Of a DNA stretch of 7,738 bases, positions 478 to 7,738 are shown one piece after another (position 1 is the stretch's first letter; each line of letters begins with the position of its first letter). The stretch lies in IMG/VR virus record IMGVR_UViG_2802429219_000018. One strand, 5' to 3'. This stretch comes from a virus (lineage: Duplodnaviria > Heunggongvirae > Uroviricota > Caudoviricetes). A program made the translations under genes and the position numbers. Under the pieces are notes generated by a model. The model worked only from the letters and a program-made list of their open reading frames with translations. It had not been told where the DNA came from and did no database searches.

Positions 478-2616
478 CTATTCATCCAGTTCATCATCCA
501 TAAGTAATGCATACGCTCTTAACTGCTTACCGTTCAGATGCTTTATTCTGGGTGTTCTTGTTTGCCACCCTTTACCACTTGAAGGGCGTTTAAGCATATT
601 TGCCCCATGAAGCACACTTGCAGCATGGTTTGCATCAAATCCACTTGCCACCTCGGCTTTAAAAACAGCCGGAAGAACATAAAAAGTTATAGCATCATCA
701 AGGTTTGATTTTCCTTTATTTTTATAACCAGCAAGGTTATGAATACTCATCTGGCTCAATTCATCAAAATCAACAGGTACAAAACGACTAATGCTATTTG
801 CTGTAAGAAATGATGTTGCCTGCTCAATAATCTGCTCGTTTTCCTTATTGCCTGTCCCGAACTCAGCCACCCATACATTAAAAACATGCTGTAACGCATC
901 TCGACACGCTAATGAGTCCCATCCAGTAATATGTTCAGAAAGCAGCATTGCACATTCCATAACTGCAAAACGATCCTTTACTCTATGAACTTGCTCGCCG
1001 TAATGTTGCGGAATAAGAGAATCCCATCGCTCTAACGCTCGTTTATAAGCCTCCTTCGCTTCCTGTTGATGATCTGCAAGCCATCTGATCCACTCACGAC
1101 CCGCCGCGCCATAATTTTCTTTCCATGCTGCTTCCAGTGCCTTCGCATGTTTCTCTCCATTTTCGTATCCATGAAATTCAGTTGGTCGAGATACAGGGAT
1201 ATTCAGTAATCTAACGAGCTGTCCAGCTTTTACTTTGATTCCTGCTCCAGCGAGAAAAGTTTCAATACTTTTCTCTCCTGTACTGATAACAACCGTTTCG
1301 AAATATTTAATTTCACGGTTCCCACCATCAGGACTTCCCTGTAATTTCCCTTTTCCATTAAAAAGAGTATAAGACGACGTAAATACACTTCTGGCACTGG
1401 AAGCCTGCTCTATTTCATCAAGAGCCAATAAACAGTGATTATGTGATTCTGCTTCGTTAGTTATACCCAACGCCGTTCCATACCAGGAAAGCCGTTGTTG
1501 TTTTGGAATTCCATACAGACTTGAGGCAAAATCTTCCGCAGTTGTTTTTCCCGCTGTACTTTGCGCATACAGATGCACACCAAAGCCATCAGCACCAATA
1601 ACACCAATCAGCGGGGCTGCCAGTGACGTAGCAGCCGCCAGCATCTGAAACGGGTTTTTATATGCCAATTTTGCAACATTCTCGCGCCAGCTTTCAGTAG
1701 TTCCTTTTACGCGATAAGCCAGCCTTGAGGCACTTCCTCCGGTAAACATAACTGGGGTTTCAGGCTCACCAATAACATCACCATTTGGCATGATGTAGAT
1801 GCCACCAAACCACCCGGAACGTTGTGTAGCCGTATACTGTAACCCTTTCTGAGCTTCATTCTGTATCCAGTCAGATAGAAGCTCTCTGGCCTTATTTTGT
1901 GTAGTAATTTTTAATCCCCAGTCTTTAAGGCGTGACCATCCCTGAGGGGTTCCAATCATTCCGGCTCTAATACAATGAGTAACCATTTCCCCCCTGAATT
2001 TCCAGCGTAAAGCAATAAACATTGCGTCATTTTCTCTATCAAATCCTTCGCCTAACACTTCCAGAGGTGAGCACATCCATTGACCATGGCGGGTTATCTC
2101 TCCTGAACGTTCAATTTTTGGGGTAACCCAGTACATACCTACTGGATCCGCATTTATACGCAATTCAACGTAAGGCGCCAGTTCATCGCGTGCCTGATTA
2201 CTTGCAGATTGCACAATATCCGTCATCGACACTTCTCCGCTCTCTACCTGTTCACGGATCCGTTGCAAGTAGTCGCGCCAGTTCTCCGGCTCCCGGTCGG
2301 TGATGCCTTTGTATAATTTCGCATCCTGTACGCCAGCCAGCGCCAGCTTTTCAGCAATAGCGTTGATCTGAATTGGCTCCATTTCCCCCGCGATATAAAC
2401 ACGCGCAAAGCGGCGCTCATCGTCAATAATGCGGATATTCGCCAGGTCTGCCAGTTGCTTTGGCCCCAGGTAAACAGGTGGTACGTTATCGCCGTGTTTT
2501 CGTCCTTCGCTTTCAATCCAGTGTTGAGCATGGGAGTAAGCGTCCGTCCCGGCAAAAATGATTACCTCGGTGAATTTATCCTTCGGCTGATATTTTAAAT
2601 TCGGTGCGTTTTTCAC
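478..2616 (-). CDS. Satellite replication initiator: primase/helicase-type protein with a DUF927-like core and a P-loop NTPase domain (712 aa)
   Basis: Long ORF with a GTG start preceded by GGAGG 6 nt upstream, and a 4-nt GTGA overlap with the upstream ORF's stop. The central segment GMYWVTPK...WMCSPLEVLGEGFDREN...FIALRWKF resembles the DUF927 core. Walker A-like AQSTAGKTT and Walker B-like CLLALDEIEQ are present. Cognate iterons follow the stop codon (TAG at 478-480). The family call is from memory, not from an HMM search. Confidence 0.9.
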   Translation of the reverse strand: MKNAPNLKYQPKDKFTEVIIFAGTDAYSHAQHWIESEGRKHGDNVPPVYLGPKQLADLANIRIIDDERRFARVYIAGEMEPIQINAIAEKLALAGVQDAKLYKGITDREPENWRDYLQRIREQVESGEVSMTDIVQSASNQARDELAPYVELRINADPVGMYWVTPKIERSGEITRHGQWMCSPLEVLGEGFDRENDAMFIALRWKFRGEMVTHCIRAGMIGTPQGWSRLKDWGLKITTQNKARELLSDWIQNEAQKGLQYTATQRSGWFGGIYIMPNGDVIGEPETPVMFTGGSASRLAYRVKGTTESWRENVAKLAYKNPFQMLAAATSLAAPLIGVIGADGFGVHLYAQSTAGKTTAEDFASSLYGIPKQQRLSWYGTALGITNEAESHNHCLLALDEIEQASSARSVFTSSYTLFNGKGKLQGSPDGGNREIKYFETVVISTGEKSIETFLAGAGIKVKAGQLVRLLNIPVSRPTEFHGYENGEKHAKALEAAWKENYGAAGREWIRWLADHQQEAKEAYKRALERWDSLIPQHYGEQVHRVKDRFAVMECAMLLSEHITGWDSLACRDALQHVFNVWVAEFGTGNKENEQIIEQATSFLTANSISRFVPVDFDELSQMSIHNLAGYKNKGKSNLDDAITFYVLPAVFKAEVASGFDANHAASVLHGANMLKRPSSGKGWQTRTPRIKHLNGKQLRAYALLMDDELDE

Positions 2617-2903
2617 TTCTTACCTCCCGCAACCAACATTGCCCGGATTTTTTTAATATTCGTGGCTGCACGTCTCGCCACCGCCTGTTGTTTGTTTTCC
2701 ACCAGAATAAAATCACGCTCAAACTGACGGCGCGGCATTACGCAGTCATATTCGTAAGCCTCACGGCGGTAGGTGATATTGCCTGGCGTAACGTGACGAA
2801 TAACCACTCGTCCCCCACGTCTGGTGTCGCGGTAAATATCTCCGTGTCTGATTTCAGGCCGAGAGAGACCGCTGGCAGTAAAGCCAGAATTTTTCTTTTT
2901 CAT
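2613..2903 (-). CDS. Small basic protein, 96 aa, function unknown (GDIYRD...VTPGNITYRREAYEYDCVMPRRQFERDF resembles DUF4222-type small phage proteins; unverified)
   Basis: ATG at 2903, 4 nt after the upstream ORF's stop. AGGA lies about 11 nt upstream. Its stop overlaps the primase GTG (GTGA). It sits in the same coupled operon. Confidence 0.65.
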   Translation of the reverse strand: MKKKNSGFTASGLSRPEIRHGDIYRDTRRGGRVVIRHVTPGNITYRREAYEYDCVMPRRQFERDFILVENKQQAVARRAATNIKKIRAMLVAGGKK

Positions 2904-2907
2904 GGTT

Positions 2908-3108
2908 TTATTTTCCTGTCAGCAGTTCCGGTTTTATTCCTGCACTAATACAGAGTTCAGAAAAGCCTTCTGCCGTACTTACAATTTCATTATTTCGCAG
3001 CCGGCATTGTGATTTCACTTTCCCTTTATCCAGGTAAACCAGTATGCGTCCGGTGAAATCCTCTGGCACATTCAGGGTAATTGTCATTGTTGCTGGCTTA
3101 TTACCCAT
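2908..3108 (-). CDS. Hypothetical 66-aa protein carrying one copy of an 'FTG' repeat domain
   Basis: The ATG overlaps the upstream stop as ATGGGTAA (3101-3108). A G8 run (complement of C8 at 3115-3122) sits 6 nt upstream and is SD-like. The domain FTGRILVYLDKGKVKSQCRLRNNEIVSTAEGFSELCISAG is paralogous to two segments of the upstream 122-aa ORF. An alternative start at M8 cannot be excluded. Confidence 0.6.
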   Translation of the reverse strand: MGNKPATMTITLNVPEDFTGRILVYLDKGKVKSQCRLRNNEIVSTAEGFSELCISAGIKPELLTGK

Positions 3109-3469
3109 GGTTCACCCCCCCCTGAATGACCTGATAACCGCAACTGGTCAGCAATTCGATAAATTCCGGCAGTGTGCCGAAACAGCAATCATCACGCAGC
3201 CGTTCGCGGGATACCTCGACGCCGTTTTCGTAGTGACTCACCATGCGTCCGGTAAAATGCAGATCATCATCGTGATGGCACGTTAACGGCTTAATCAGTC
3301 GCGCACGTTCCGCCAGTTCCAGCAATGCTTCAACGCTTCCGGCAATTGCACCATCCGGCAGGTGGTAATTACGCACTATGCGCCCGTTCTCCACATTGAC
3401 CAGCAACTGCCCGGTAAATTTCTCGTCAAACTGAATGCTGTTAAGGTCAGAAATTGACAGGTTATGCAT
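3101..3469 (-). CDS. Hypothetical 122-aa protein with two tandem copies of the 'FTG' repeat domain
   Basis: ATG at 3469 with GGAGG 6 nt upstream. It overlaps the upstream stop as ATGCATAA (3462-3469). The internal repeat is FTGQLLVNVENGRIV...GSVEALLELAERA (from aa 18) versus FTGRMVSHYENGVEV...GTLPEFIELLTSCG (from aa 72). Confidence 0.7.
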   Translation of the reverse strand: MHNLSISDLNSIQFDEKFTGQLLVNVENGRIVRNYHLPDGAIAGSVEALLELAERARLIKPLTCHHDDDLHFTGRMVSHYENGVEVSRERLRDDCCFGTLPEFIELLTSCGYQVIQGGVNHG

Positions 3470-3665
3470 GGTGCACCTCCTGGCGAATACGGGCAGCGAA
3501 TACCATCACGCAGCCATCAGGAGATTGCTGACGCGCTTCCTGTTCGCTGATGGCCTCGATGTGAATTACGCGCGGTTGTGCCGTACTCAGGGCGATAAAA
3601 CGCCAGATATATTTATTCAGGTTGTGCGAGTCCCGCCCTTGCGGGTGTGTGGTATGATTTCTCAT
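3462..3665 (-). CDS. Icd-like / Ash-like small protein, 67 aa (uses an internal start of the 331-aa track ORF)
   Basis: ATG at 3665 is preceded by GAGGT (3674..3670). The sequence MRNHTTHPQGRDSHNLNKYIWRFIALSTAQPRVIHIEAISEQEARQQSPDGCVMVFAARIRQEVHHA fits the pattern I recall for phage Icd-like proteins (aromatic-x-W/F-x-F-x-A ... A-x-SE-x-EAR ... F-A-A-R). It is the first gene of the coupled operon. The family call is from memory. Confidence 0.65.
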   Translation of the reverse strand: MRNHTTHPQGRDSHNLNKYIWRFIALSTAQPRVIHIEAISEQEARQQSPDGCVMVFAARIRQEVHHA

Positions 3666-3745
3666 AGCTACCTCGATACTGTTGCTATCGTTGGTGGTTA
3701 GAAGCCCGGTTAGTGTTAGCGCACTGCCGGGTTTCGTCGTTTTTA
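3665..3745 (+). ncRNA. Candidate ~80-nt cis-antisense RNA covering the SD/start of the Icd-like gene
   Basis: There is a plus-strand extended -10 (TG-g-TATGAT, 3650-3658) inside the Icd-like coding region, which predicts a start near 3665. The RNA has a 5' hairpin (cgata-ctgttgc-tatcg, 3674-3690) and then a plus-oriented terminator hairpin (3701-3735) with a U-rich tail to 3745. No plus-strand gene feeds this terminator. The start site and expression are untested. Confidence 0.35.
3701..3745 (+). terminator. Plus-strand-oriented intrinsic terminator-like hairpin in the leader region of the replication operon
   Basis: The stem pairs gaagcccggttagtg with cactgccgggtttc (14 pairs, one bulged U, 6-nt loop ttagcg), followed by gtcgttttta. 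Two of the pairs are G-U on the plus RNA (3704/3732 and 3711/3726) and would be C-A mismatches on the minus RNA. The U-rich tail exists only in the plus orientation. Confidence 0.45.
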
Positions 3746-3754
3746 TGAATCGAT

Positions 3755-3860
3755 CATTGTGAGATACATAGTCATCACAATGTGAGATATACATTATATT
3801 GTGGTGATATACATTGCAAGTGTTTTTATATCTCACTTTTGTGTATAGTGATATACACAT
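3755..3860. promoter_or_regulatory. Operator array and divergent promoter region between the RHH gene (+) and the Icd-like/primase operon (-)
   Basis: Five copies of GTGA(G)ATA(TA)CA: 3759-3770, 3782-3795, 3804-3815, an inverted copy at 3827-3836, and 3848-3860. They are phased at about 22 bp. An 8-bp inverted repeat CATTGTGA/TCACAATG lies at 3755-3762 and 3775-3782. A perfect minus-strand TATAAT (3798..3793) has a palindromic TTGCAA (3814-3819) 15 bp upstream. A plus-strand TATAGT lies at 3844-3849. The promoter assignments are tentative. Confidence 0.65.
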
Positions 3861-3879
3861 AACTAATTGGTGATTAACT

Positions 3880-4182
3880 ATGTCTGTATACAAAAATGCA
3901 AAATCGCAAATGACAACGATCAGGGTTCCCCACGATGTTATGGAGGGTATGGAATCCGTAAAACTGGACGGCGAAAGCAACGCCGGATTCATAGTAACCG
4001 CCATGCGTGGTGAGATCGCCCGCCGCCAGGCAGAAGGAAGAGGAGAAAATCCCCTGGTTTCTTCGCTCGATGCACTGGCGCAGGTGGAAAAAATCGGAGT
4101 CAAAGCAGCCGAGGAGATCGGGCAGCTCGTCACCGTCGCGCGTGAAGAACTCCAGCGCCGCAAGGCCAAAGAACAGGAGTAG
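3880..4182 (+). CDS. Ribbon-helix-helix-like small DNA-binding protein (YlcI/YnfO-like), 100 aa; candidate island repressor
   Basis: The N-terminal segment TTIRVPHDVMEGMESVKLDGESNAGFIVTAMRGEIARR has a strand-helix-helix pattern like the YlcI segment IRFPNQMIEQINIALEQKGSGNFSAWVIEACRRRL (from memory). The C-terminal half is charged and helical. It is the only plus-strand gene and sits next to the operator array. The antisense ORFs over it (3874-4200 and 3462-4457) are Ser/Cys-rich shadow-type sequence. Confidence 0.7.
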   Translation: MSVYKNAKSQMTTIRVPHDVMEGMESVKLDGESNAGFIVTAMRGEIARRQAEGRGENPLVSSLDALAQVEKIGVKAAEEIGQLVTVAREELQRRKAKEQE

Positions 4183-4457
4183 TTGATCAGCACCGGGCAA
4201 CCAGAAAAAATCGTATCAGTCGCGCTACCAGCAAAATTTTTTGCTTTCCGGACAGCGTGGCCAACGGCATTTTGCAGCAAAATATTCTGCATTTCTGGCG
4301 TGCTGTAGTAACGGTGATCAGCGCCTTCACATTGAACGAACTTGTCGCTAAAATTCACCCATATAGCAAACATCGCGGTGCTACAGGTAATTCGTTCACA
4401 AAGGCGCTCCGGCAACGGGGCGCTTTCTCTTTTTGTAACGGTCAGAGCGTTACACAT
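4183..4457 (-). other. 5' segment of the long minus-strand ORF: a translationally coupled start with no local stop codon
   Basis: The ATG at 4457 overlaps the ant-like stop as ATGTGTAA, with GGAGG 9 nt upstream. The first ~90 codons (MCNALTVTKRESAPLPERLCERITCSTAMFAIWVNFSDKFVQCEGADHRYYSTPEMQNILLQNAVGHAVRKAKNF...) look protein-like and have no competing gene. The frame stays open to 3462, so the 3' end is undefined. Confidence 0.3.
4401..4434 (+). terminator. Rho-independent terminator, plus-strand orientation, about 220 nt downstream of the RHH gene's stop
   Basis: aaggcgctccg-GCAA-cggggcgcttt forms an 11-bp stem (two G-U pairs on the plus RNA) with a GNRA tetraloop, followed by ctctttttg. 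The minus-strand equivalent has C-A mismatches and only a UUUGUG tail. Confidence 0.6.
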
Positions 4458-5250
4458 GGCTGTTTTCCTCCATGCGACGGGCTAACCAACGCTGCGAAAG
4501 ACGAATTAATTCAGCTTTCCGCTGGTGGTAGTCCTGGCCTAACTCAATCAGCGTGATATTGCTCTGCTCAAGGTAAGAAAGGTGCTCAAGCTGCAATGTG
4601 CTCATGTGGTCGCGTGGTTCGCCTGTGATGTCGTTCGCCTGCGCCCACTGTTTTGCAGTCATGCCACCCAGCACGATACGCGCCAGCATGTTCGCTTCCG
4701 TGGTGTAGTGGTGCTGGAGTGTGTTTTTACCCAGTTCAGCCCGGTACGCCTCCAGCGCGGCACACATTGGCTTAAAGTAGCTGGCAACTGTGATACGGGC
4801 TTTCAGTTCCCGGCGTAACGCTGCGGAACGCACTGGCGCTACCTTGTGTAGCTCCTCCTCGCATTTGATGAAGTACTGACGAACGGCGCGGCCCTGTTCG
4901 GTGCGTTCGACCATCGCCAGTTCTTTCGCCATGTTGATAGTGCTCAGGTAGTCGTGCTCTATACGTTGGCGAGATTTTGCGCTCACCGGATTGGGGGAGG
5001 TCAAATTTTCTACGAATTCAAAATCCACGCCCTTTTTAAATCCGTACTCATCAATGCGTCCTTTAATCCAGGTTGTGAAATCACGGCCTACCCCGAGCGC
5101 CTTATGCAACGCTCTGGCGCTAACAATATTGGTTTCACGCCCGCCAATAACGCCGGAAATAACCGGGATAATTTCGCCAAAATTTTGCAGATTCTGGTTT
5201 TCAGGCCGAACGAAGCCCTGCCCCTGTACGGGCGTTTTTGGAAATTTCAT
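4450..5250 (-). CDS. AntA/AntB-family phage antirepressor homolog, 266 aa
   Basis: ATG at 5250 with AGGAG 5 nt upstream. The N-terminal half (VSARALHKALGVGRDFTTWIKGRIDEYGFKKGVDF...INMAKELAMVERTEQGRAVRQYFIKCEEEL) matches the AntA domain pattern. The C-terminal half is helical and of uncertain family. Confidence 0.85.
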   Translation of the reverse strand: MKFPKTPVQGQGFVRPENQNLQNFGEIIPVISGVIGGRETNIVSARALHKALGVGRDFTTWIKGRIDEYGFKKGVDFEFVENLTSPNPVSAKSRQRIEHDYLSTINMAKELAMVERTEQGRAVRQYFIKCEEELHKVAPVRSAALRRELKARITVASYFKPMCAALEAYRAELGKNTLQHHYTTEANMLARIVLGGMTAKQWAQANDITGEPRDHMSTLQLEHLSYLEQSNITLIELGQDYHQRKAELIRLSQRWLARRMEENSHV

Positions 5251-5525: not shown

Positions 5526-5590
5526 GATAATCGTCTCCCGTTGTTTATTGATGCCTACGGGAGACATTGAAGCAGGTAAGACATTGGATA

Positions 5591-5629
5591 TCACCGCAAT
5601 TGCGGTGAATGATACCGCAATTGCGGTAT
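5591..5629. promoter_or_regulatory. Twin 18-bp perfect palindromes (core ACCGCAATTGCGGT) upstream of alpA; putative dimer-binding operators
   Basis: TCACCGCAATTGCGGTGA (5591-5608) and ATACCGCAATTGCGGTAT (5612-5629) are each perfectly self-complementary. Their centres are exactly 21 bp apart. They lie between the 251-aa gene's stop (5640) and the alpA start (5525). Confidence 0.7.
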
Positions 5630-6395: not shown

Positions 6396-6523
6396 TCTGT
6401 GCTACCTCGCACCCTCTGTAAAAGTGGCTGTGCCAGCCCGCAGAGGTGTACGGGTTTTCAGGAGCGACCCTAGACACAGCCTTTTCTTAATCGCTCAAAG
6501 TCTACTACTGTATACTCAACCAG

Positions 6524-7738
6524 TCACCCGCATTTTCCGAACTCACCATGCACCACATTTCCGCCATGCTCGAGCGAATCCATATAATCGGCGTACCACT
6601 GAAGCATTTCCCGCCGTCCATCCAGATATTGCGCATGGTTGTATGTGCCACGAATTGAGTTTTTATCGACGTGTGCGAGCTGCGTCTCTATCCATGCGGT
6701 GTTATAGCCCTGCTCATGCAAAATGGTGCTCATGGTGTGCCGGAATCCATGACCAGTAACCTTTCCGTTATAGCCGATGCGTTTAAATACTTGGTTTATG
6801 CTAGCCTCGCTCATTGTTTTCCTTGGATCATTACGGCCGGGAAACATAAGCGGATAATTGCCAGTTAATTCTTTAATCTGCCCAATAAGAGAAAGAGCCT
6901 GCTTAGACAAAGGCACCACATGAGGGCGACGCATTTTCATCCGTGAAGCAGGTATCTCCCAGATAGCCTTGTTGAGATCGATTTCATCCCATAATGCACC
7001 GCGCAGTTCGCCAGTTCGCAAACCAGTGATAATCAGTAGACGAGCCGCCATAACAACCAATGCACTTCCTGAGTAACTGGACAATGCCTTGAAAAAATCA
7101 GGCAATTCTTTGGCTGTGAGGAAAGGATAATGATTAGATTCATGGCCTTGCATCGCGCTAGTAAGATCTGGGGCAGGGTTATACTCTGCGCGACCAGTGA
7201 CTATTGCATAGCGGAAAACTTCCCCACACCGCTGCCTCACTTTTTTGGCTTTTTCTGTAGCACCGCGCCCCTCGATGCGTCGCAGCACATTCAGAAGTTC
7301 AAGTGGTTTGATTTCGGCGATTGGTTTTTTGCCAATGTAAGGGAACACATCTTTGTTGAAGGCTTCGAGGATGTCTGAAGCATAACCAGCAGACCATTTT
7401 TTTAATTTGCTGCTGTGCCACTCAAGGGCAATATCTTTGAAGGTGTTGTTTAACTGCGTTTCCCGGGCAATCTTTTCCTCTCGTTTCGCTTCCATCGGAT
7501 CGATACCCCCAGCGATACCCCTTTTAGCTTCTTCACGTTTTGCACGAGCATCAGCCAAGGTAACTTCAGGATACACACCTAGTGCTAACAGCTTCTCTTT
7601 ACCAGCTACACGATACTTGAAGCGCCAATATTTTCCTCCACTAGGTTTTACCAAGAGATACAGACCACCACCATCAGCCAGCTTGTAAGCCTTCTCTTTT
7701 GGCTTGGCAGTGTCTATTTGACGGGCATTGAGTTTCAC
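6524..7738 (-). CDS. int: P4-type (DUF4102 N-terminal arm) tyrosine integrase, 404 aa as read; 5' end coincides with the window edge
   Basis: The N-terminus ARQIDTAKPKEKAYKLADGGGLYLLVKPSGGKYWRFKYR is typical of the P4/CP4 integrase family. Catalytic motifs are TGLRTGELR, GHGFRHT and RGTYNHAQY, and GEVFRYAIVTGRAEYNPAPDL is shared with IntS-like integrases. The first codon in the window is GTG. The true start may be here or a few codons beyond the window. Confidence 0.9.
   Translation of the reverse strand: MKLNARQIDTAKPKEKAYKLADGGGLYLLVKPSGGKYWRFKYRVAGKEKLLALGVYPEVTLADARAKREEAKRGIAGGIDPMEAKREEKIARETQLNNTFKDIALEWHSSKLKKWSAGYASDILEAFNKDVFPYIGKKPIAEIKPLELLNVLRRIEGRGATEKAKKVRQRCGEVFRYAIVTGRAEYNPAPDLTSAMQGHESNHYPFLTAKELPDFFKALSSYSGSALVVMAARLLIITGLRTGELRGALWDEIDLNKAIWEIPASRMKMRRPHVVPLSKQALSLIGQIKELTGNYPLMFPGRNDPRKTMSEASINQVFKRIGYNGKVTGHGFRHTMSTILHEQGYNTAWIETQLAHVDKNSIRGTYNHAQYLDGRREMLQWYADYMDSLEHGGNVVHGEFGKCG

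Follow-up and report, generated by a model that had tools for sequence, protein, structure and literature searches.

A 7,738-nucleotide stretch of DNA, deposited in IMG/VR as the virus record IMGVR_UViG_2802429219_000018 (Duplodnaviria; Heunggongvirae; Uroviricota; Caudoviricetes) and referred to here over its whole length as the window, is a phage-satellite island of the AlpA type, the type of certain phage-inducible chromosomal islands (PICIs). It includes a minus-strand open reading frame (ORF) of 331 codons that runs antisense through an entire gene of the ribbon-helix-helix (RHH) type and ends in a small Icd-like gene. The reading that we favor, with reasonable though not strong confidence, is that this ORF is a nested frame of the eta/kil type, known from satellite P4, within a PICI-like satellite of the AlpA type, and that translation entering it from the upstream operon carries transcripts to the replication genes. 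Comparison of related sequences shows that the frame, its phase, and its start and stop junctions are conserved without amino acid constraint, and our conclusion is that the frame is selected for its openness, its phase, and the joining of its neighbors rather than for a peptide.

The preliminary description of the window, made from the letters alone, had singled out a minus-strand frame that begins at ATG 4457 and lacks stops for 331 codons. The ORF listing and an independent stop count agree with it: over nucleotides 3462-4457 the frame contains no internal stop, compared with 22 and 16 in its two minus-strand alternatives and with 9, 12 and 15 in the three frames of the plus strand. Its sole stop is the terminal TAA at 3464-3462, and openness reaches up to nucleotide 4481. 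The junctions are also as had been claimed, including the GGAGG upstream of the start. The start of the frame overlaps the stop of the upstream AntA/Bro-type gene (ant) as ATGTGTAA at 4450-4457, and its stop overlaps the start of the next gene as ATGCATAA at 3462-3469. The genes downstream of the frame form a chain in which each is joined to the next by an 8-nt or 4-nt overlap or by a 4-nt gap, and the gap between alpA and ant is 77 nt. Mono- and dinucleotide shuffles of this window gave a probability of 0.007 that the 71 AT-rich codons at 3666-3878 would be free of stops, in keeping with the earlier rough estimate of 1 in a few hundred, and of 0.006 for the segment 4183-4457. With the sequence of the RHH protein taken as fixed, the 100 codons opposite its gene would lack stops with a probability of 0.06-0.17, and the joint value in this one window comes to about 1e-6 to 1e-5.

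Related loci were compared using a sample of 103 that encode a relative of the RHH protein, which includes 9 complete Escherichia coli genomes, 80 IMG/VR contigs, and 13 species-representative genomes of Enterobacter, Xenorhabdus, Photorhabdus, Serratia, Yersinia, Pantoea, Scandinavium, Lelliottia and Pseudomonas. The minus frame that shares its third codon positions with the RHH gene is stop-free inside that gene in 101 of the 103 loci (80 distinct spans). The check for in-frame stops in homologs across 3666-4449, which had been set beforehand, thus came out in favor of a maintained frame. The other two frames antisense to the RHH gene have, in the same loci, means of 2.6 and 6.2 stops within it. 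The open span around the RHH gene measures 121-819 codons, with a median of 357, and 215-425 codons in 12 of the 13 species-representative genomes, which belong to nine genera. Beyond the RHH gene the frame remains open for another 52-262 codons on each side, where the other two minus frames have about 5-8% stops.

The variation among these loci follows the frame. Upstream of the RHH gene the frame runs through eight sequence families that are mutually unalignable and 52-262 codons long, every one of which is open. The distance between the ant-overlapping ATG and the end of the RHH gene takes nine lengths, from 278 to 728 nt, each of them 2 mod 3. The spacer between the Icd ATG and the RHH ATG measures 196, 199, 208, 211, 214 or 1000 nt, each 1 mod 3, with the exception of a 200-nt group in which the frame closes 19 nt short of the Icd ATG. 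In 13/15 genus-level loci an ATG belonging to the frame shares nucleotides with the stop codon of the preceding minus-strand gene, in overlaps of the ATGnnTAA, ATGA or TAATG types. Of 87 distinct loci, 64 have the frame fused to Icd, and in 20 it closes 5-19 nt short of the Icd ATG.

Some variants of the frame were recorded as separate observations. In a deletion variant (locus L054, 2317-3507, minus strand) and about 17 related IMG/VR loci, the AntA N-terminus is fused in frame to the long ORF, which in variants of this type ends 19 nt before the Icd ATG and does not enter Icd. A relative with a short YlcI/YnfO gene of 59 amino acids keeps the same phase relation, the gene lying inside a 403-amino-acid frame. 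A conserved KEKDSTANATLW in the translated frame of Xenorhabdus and Photorhabdus, judged from the translation alone, is maybe the equivalent of the terminator described below.

Substitution patterns separate the Icd-like gene from the rest of the frame. In the Icd-like gene the fractions of variable sites at the three codon positions are 0.31, 0.36 and 0.55, and the synonymous fraction is 0.51. The corresponding values are 0.65, 0.75 and 0.74 with a synonymous fraction of 0.14 for nucleotides 3666-3879, and 0.26, 0.25 and 0.23 with a synonymous fraction of 0.26 for nucleotides 4183-4457, so that the third-position excess is absent in the parts of the frame that flank the RHH gene outside Icd. 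The neutral expectation for the synonymous fraction is 0.23, and ant, the 122-amino-acid gene and the RHH gene give 0.52-0.58; in all these fractions some single variants score as stops when set in the codon context of the window, either because adjacent changes or indels in their own loci give a different codon or because they belong to the few loci whose early stops are genuine. The fractions of 0.14 and 0.26, compared with the neutral 0.23 and with 0.51-0.58 for real genes, uphold the earlier judgement that a conventional 331-amino-acid protein is unlikely. No domain was found by Pfam or NCBIfam in the part of the ORF outside Icd, for which PHROGs gave just one faint match.

Within the overlap with the RHH gene, the mean BLOSUM62 score of mismatches is +0.23 in the RHH frame and -1.13 in the antisense frame. 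Changes are conservative in the former and radical in the latter, and therefore RHH is the selected protein in the overlap. Given this protein, the probability that no antisense stop occurs is 0.06-0.25 per lineage. The conserved patches of the translated frame coincide with plus-strand elements, namely the terminator at 4401-4436 and the two-hairpin RNA at 3666-3745. The reverse possibility, that the RHH gene is a spurious shadow of a real minus-strand protein, was considered and is ruled out by the same BLOSUM62 values; it is also countered by a match to a curated family and by a confident helical model. The features of the window are collected in Table 1.

Table 1. Features of the window in the minus-strand order of the island, followed by the elements that lie inside or at the ends of the long frame
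Feature	Coordinates	Strand	Basis or remarks
Integrase gene	6524-7738	minus	Gene order and Pfam
251-amino-acid gene	between integrase and alpA	minus	Minus-strand reading of the island
alpA, 65 amino acids	5328-5525	minus	PF05930; ATG 5525
AntA/Bro-type gene (ant)	4450-5250	minus	PF08346
Long eta-like frame, 331 codons plus stop	3462-4457	minus	ORF listing and stop count
Downstream chain: 122 amino acids, 66 amino acids, DUF4222, DUF927 primase	478-3469	minus	ORF listing and Pfam
DUF927 primase, last of four overlapping genes	478-2616	minus	Pfam
Icd-like/Kil-family gene, 67 amino acids	3462-3665	minus	Own ATG 3665 and GAGGT ribosome-binding site; C-terminal part of the long frame
Coupling junction	4450-4471	minus	GGAGG 4471-4467, 9 nt, ATG 4457-4455, ant stop TAA 4452-4450
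Candidate promoter of Icd and the replication operon	TTGCAA 3819-3814, 15 nt, TATAAT 3798-3793	minus	Hexamers read by eye
AT-rich divergent control region	3755-3862		TGTGAGATA-type direct and inverted repeats
RHH-type YlcI/YnfO gene, 100 amino acids	3880-4182	plus	NF041551 (YlcI_YnfO_N), 71.2 bits, cut-off 30
Intrinsic terminator	4401-4436	plus	11-bp stem, then CTCTTTTTGT; inside the long frame
Extended -10-like TGgTATGAT	3649-3657	plus	Inside Icd codons 3-5, 9 nt upstream of the RNA element
Two-hairpin RNA element plus U-run	3666-3745	plus	Antisense to the Icd-like 5' untranslated region and ribosome-binding site

The nested gene at the end of the long ORF relates the window to P4. The Icd-like domain NF033153 covers ORF residues 283-326, and the 67-amino-acid gene matches this model at 68.4 bits (cut-off 25 bits), as does P4 Kil (65 amino acids) at 76 bits. 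Pairwise BLASTP of the Icd-like protein with P4 Kil gave a weak match (E 0.003), and tblastn of the Icd-like protein in the phage collection found one PICI-like record and did not recover P4; because of this the link between the two proteins rests on the shared NCBIfam model, by which they are shown, at the level of sequence, to be homologous. Annotation of this gene among relatives is uneven. PGAP places the start of Icd-like proteins so that they vary widely, with 67, 73, 121 or 222 amino acids, the 222-amino-acid call (L021) overlapping the YlcI gene. In the Icd region of some E. coli relatives (loci L002, L003, L017, L019 and L021), the Icd-like gene is a composite of 121 amino acids consisting of an Icd-like N-terminus, an insert of about 55 amino acids, and the Icd core.

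In P4, an ORF at 8168-8812 on the minus strand ends in Kil, and its MMM starts (197-199 amino acids) overlap the stop of ORF88/vis, the alpA homolog. This eta ORF overlies the C4/CI RNA and the seqA/isrK elements (Rfam: C4, isrK, c4-a1b1), and its residues 37-161 match PF10554 (Phage_ASH) at 82 bits. The Phage_ASH stretch of P4 (8330-8700) coincides with the DNA that overlies these RNA genes, and therefore this protein family may largely reflect their conservation. Nonsense codons in eta reportedly, in work of Forti in 1999, lead to premature termination of transcription. The summary of Forti et al. 1999 (J Bacteriol 181:5225) given in PMC10111431 places a constitutive promoter inside eta, describes Kil as a truncated product, and states that translation of eta was reported to prevent termination of the transcripts that start at the regulated promoter upstream. 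The preliminary description had supposed that the open frame of the window is kept, that it is unlikely to encode a conventional protein, and that translation from the upstream operon may protect read-through transcripts, override the RHH gene by convergent transcription, and bypass a repressed internal promoter. The first two parts of this interpretation stand; the proposed logic of translational protection and bypass is not new, since, according to that summary, it has been reported for P4 eta/kil, a precedent that the preliminary description did not name.

The resemblance between the two systems extends along the locus. In both, the last 65 or so codons of the long ORF are a Kil/Icd gene with its own start, the first codon of the ORF shares nucleotides with the stop codon of the preceding gene of an alpA-containing operon, and overlapping genes lead on to a primase; the P4 ORF also harbors an internal promoter and immunity elements, for which the window ORF has putative counterparts. 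The differences are of size, position and content. While eta has 197-199 codons, the window ORF has 331 and its relatives have up to 819, and eta directly follows vis, whereas in the window the AntA gene lies between alpA and the frame. Eta overlies RNA immunity genes of its own strand and its body is Phage_ASH; the window frame has neither, and runs instead antisense through the full RHH gene, its terminator, and a plus-strand structured RNA. The RNA immunity of P4 would be replaced here by the antisense RHH (YlcI/YnfO) gene and the conserved SymR-like RNA.

Phages P1 and P7 offer a second comparison. In P1, an antisense RNA that blocks icd translation causes Rho-dependent loss of the downstream, translationally coupled gene. 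The immI operon of P1 and P7 is said, in studies attributed to Biere et al. 1992 and Riedel et al. 1993, to have the order c4 RNA, icd, ant. A small ORF of the Icd family is translated first there as it is in the window. In P1, however, the RNA derives from the icd transcript itself and works in trans, icd is short, and no long upstream frame is known to bypass the block; the window, for its part, has no match to the C4 family in Rfam.

The two-hairpin element that precedes the Icd-like gene is a candidate cis-antisense RNA of the SymR-like kind, and its expression and function would be those of an antisense regulator of that gene. Its first nucleotides face the Icd ATG and ribosome-binding site. 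Its match to the Rfam symR model scores 32.9 bits (E 0.003), below the gathering score of 61, in an alignment that spans model positions 1-77 from end to end, and locus L005 has a symR-like match of 38.7 bits. Among 16 diverse sequences, 98.9% of the cells in the structure pair and five pairs show compensatory changes, giving a covariation score that no shuffle reached. The structure prefers the plus strand: with 36 G-U cells, 98.9% of the cells are paired when it is read as plus and 89.1% when it is read as minus. The minimum free energy is -36 kcal/mol (z = -5.4). An extended -10-like element, GGTATGAT or GGTATAAT, is conserved in most homologs, which the coding constraint on Icd may also explain, and it would start the antisense RNA near nucleotide 3666. 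A known pair that this arrangement recalls is SymE/SymR (RF01809) of E. coli, in which a two-hairpin RNA of about 77 nt is transcribed from within the first part of a gene for a small toxic protein and is antisense to the ribosome-binding site and start of that gene. The differences are that the window element scores well below the gathering threshold, that its target is a gene of the Icd/Kil family and not SymE, and that the RNA is here a predicted one. Together, the RNA element and the Kil-family gene may form a pair similar to the type I toxin-antitoxin systems.

The RHH gene is wholly antisense to the long frame, and the third codon positions of both frames coincide. It has 249 relatives in the databases, some of them named Arc-like or CopG. 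The structure model comprises an extended strand, helices at residues 18-27 and 34-52, and a long C-terminal helix, with a mean pLDDT (predicted local distance difference test) of 80. A Foldseek comparison of the model with the PDB gave no significant match, by which the RHH fold is left unconfirmed, and a sequence search of the PDB found nothing. The TGTGAGATA-type repeats in the divergent control region are putative operators for the RHH protein. The terminator probably ends the RHH mRNA before transcription runs into ant, and the stretch that it occupies, 4401-4436, is nearly invariant among the E. coli-type loci. Both this terminator and the structured RNA at 3666-3745 lie inside the long frame, and neither was part of the preliminary description. 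Small genes annotated as hypothetical proteins follow YlcI/YnfO in the E. coli relatives L001 (2326-2505), L019 (2482-2682), L018 (2714-2914) and L022 (2696-2896), all on the plus strand and all in the plus frame of RHH; their third codon positions therefore coincide with those of the long minus frame, of which they may be shadow ORFs.

The remaining genes are those of a Gram-negative PICI, whose layout is present here according to Pfam and gene order: int, alpA and pri-rep are co-oriented, and origin-like iterons follow the primase. The labels AntA, AlpA, primase, Icd-like and RHH given to these genes at the outset all hold (PF08346, PF05930, DUF927, NF033153 and YlcI_YnfO_N, respectively). 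The alpA gene is presumed to be the first gene of an inducible upstream transcription unit, and the coding sequence of its homologs is likewise 198 nt long. Downstream of the primase stop, at 128-450, about a dozen iterons of the form GAGACAAC/GTTGTCTC are found in both orientations around an AT-rich core, and this region is probably the replication origin. The int-alpA RNA motif RF02996 is present between the integrase gene and the 251-amino-acid gene, at 6412-6480 on the minus strand (49.8 bits; gathering score 35.8). Two perfect 14-nt palindromes, ACCGCAATTGCGGT, at 5593-5627, 21 nt apart from start to start and about 70-100 nt upstream of the alpA ATG 5525, are a candidate AlpA or operator site of an inducible promoter. 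Directly upstream of the same ATG, at 5527-5560 on the minus strand, a hairpin GTCTCCCG...CGGGAGAC contains the Shine-Dalgarno-like GGGAGA and could sequester the alpA ribosome-binding site.

A mechanism can be proposed from these elements. In the quiescent state, the divergent RHH protein would probably repress the internal promoter ahead of the Icd start, the cis-antisense RNA would probably mask the Icd ribosome-binding site, and the short untranslated leader would be exposed to Rho. On induction, AlpA would activate its own promoter and give rise to transcripts that start upstream. Ribosomes that end translation of ant would re-initiate at ATG 4457, from which the frame is open for the 264 codons that lead to the Icd-like start, and would cross about 0.8 kb without coding value on this strand, made up of the terminator of the RHH mRNA, the antisense of the RHH gene, the operators and promoters, and the antisense-RNA region. 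Unbroken translation would cover the nascent RNA so that Rho could not terminate, and ribosomes would reach Icd and the replication genes that overlap one another after it, with no need for the repressed promoter or for the ribosome-binding site that is masked. We infer in this scheme the target of Rho, the usage of the promoters, and the roles of AlpA, the RHH protein and the antisense RNA. Intragenic Rut sites are shielded from Rho by translating ribosomes (reviewed in PMC12360218), and in the island EcCICFT073 the overexpression of AlpA alone sets off pri-dependent replication, AlpA having been shown to activate its own promoter only (PMC6092414).

Several observations weigh against the eta/kil reading. 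Loci L013 and L045 have an in-frame stop within the RHH gene, and the frame ends early in L035 and L053. The 103 loci are not independent because many of them are closely related E. coli elements, and the argument leans mainly on the genus-level loci and on indel and mosaic variation. Phage_ASH (PF10554) has no match in the window ORF or in six long relatives, and C4 and isrK RNA have no Rfam match in the window or in nine relatives. Outside Icd the frame lacks homology to Eta, so that Kil/Icd homology and architecture are what connect the window with P4. The internal promoter and the operators were assigned by eye, and a consensus promoter scan that required spacers of 16-18 nt found none in 3666-3879. 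The minus-strand RNA has a modest C-over-G bias, with a weak C-rich, Rut-like hint at 3640-3760 in the GC-skew profile, and because of this modest bias a Rut site is not evident.

The frame could instead encode a functional long protein, that is, an Eta-like, N-terminally extended isoform of Icd/Kil in which the extension is fast-evolving or disordered and the function, for example that of modulating or detoxifying Kil, resides in the polypeptide. Gene callers and NCBI indeed annotate hundreds of Icd-like or ash family proteins of 250-530 amino acids, fusion to Icd is found in the 64 distinct loci mentioned above, and published work counts P4 Eta among the proteins of the Bro network (PMC10111431). 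We nevertheless regard such a protein as unlikely. Substitutions outside Icd fit the neutral expectation, and the antisense amino acid changes in the RHH overlap are radical (-1.13). The extension upstream of RHH varies from about 50 to more than 260 codons in eight unalignable families and has no Pfam or NCBIfam domain, its conserved patches match nucleic acid elements of the other strand (terminator and RNA hairpin), and in 20 of the 87 distinct loci the frame ends before the Icd ATG, so that no fusion protein is made. Still less can be said for a chance or shadow ORF, a by-product of RHH codon composition that extends into the flanks, and we consider it very improbable. The phase in which third positions are shared with RHH is the antisense phase where long shadow ORFs are commonest, and permutation of synonymous codons within the gene gives probabilities of no stop of up to 0.69 in some lineages. 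Against this, the frame continues for 52-262 codons beyond RHH on each side in mutually unalignable families, indels keep its phase, its start overlaps the upstream stop, and the joint probability for this window alone is of the order given above; the openness in 101/103 loci, the phase-keeping indels, the start overlaps and the unalignable open families together rule out a chance origin.

A different kind of explanation accepts that translation is selected and denies that its purpose is to block Rho. Ribosomes would then melt the structure of the 5' untranslated region or its duplex with the antisense RNA and open the Icd start and the replication genes, which amounts to pure translational coupling, or to protection of the mRNA from decay. 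Such a role would suit the stable covarying structure or antisense RNA over the Icd ribosome-binding site, the invariable end of the frame either within Icd or just short of the Icd ATG, and the joining of every downstream gene by an overlap of 4-8 nt or a 4-nt gap. Coupling, however, needs only a short upstream ORF and not 250-750 codons that reach back exactly to the stop of the previous gene, and nonsense codons in P4 eta reportedly cause premature transcription termination (Forti 1999; see also the summary in PMC10111431). We think it improbable, to about the same degree as a functional long protein, that this explanation accounts for the frame, and return to protection of read-through transcripts from Rho as the reading that we prefer.

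A bolder claim, which we put forward tentatively and would set slightly below an even chance, is that about 260-750 codons of the frame are a translated spacer, conserved across the Enterobacterales and Pseudomonas only for the passage of ribosomes and with no selected product. None of the full-text literature that was searched describes a neutrally evolving, strictly open frame that encloses both a protein gene on the opposite strand and a plus-strand RNA. If the claim is true, the spacer is threaded antisense through a full repressor gene, its terminator, its operators and an antisense-RNA gene, and one stretch of DNA houses the repressor while the island is quiescent and, on induction, becomes a track for ribosomes by which this repression is overridden. 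It would be among the longest known ORFs kept for the act of translation alone, and could represent a general design principle of P4-like and PICI satellites.

The locus also links the AlpA-type PICIs mechanistically to P4. EcCICFT073 resembles the window in that int, alpA and the primase gene point in one direction, with the iterons of the origin after the primase, and in having AlpA as the activator (Fillol-Salom et al. 2018, PMC6092414). It differs in that its description reports no global repressor and counts just three proteins homologous to those of P4 (PMC6092414); the window has in addition a homolog of Kil/Icd, a frame like eta, and an RHH gene that is divergent and accompanied by operator-like repeats. 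The RHH protein and the cis-antisense RNA are thus concrete candidates for the missing repression layer of the PICIs, and the frame is a candidate for the bypass of this layer on induction. Databases currently name such products of 250-530 amino acids Icd-like or ash family proteins. The frame offers a clear example from nature in which translatability is selected and the translated product is not, and this matters for the interpretation and annotation of ORFs that overlap or lie antisense to other genes.

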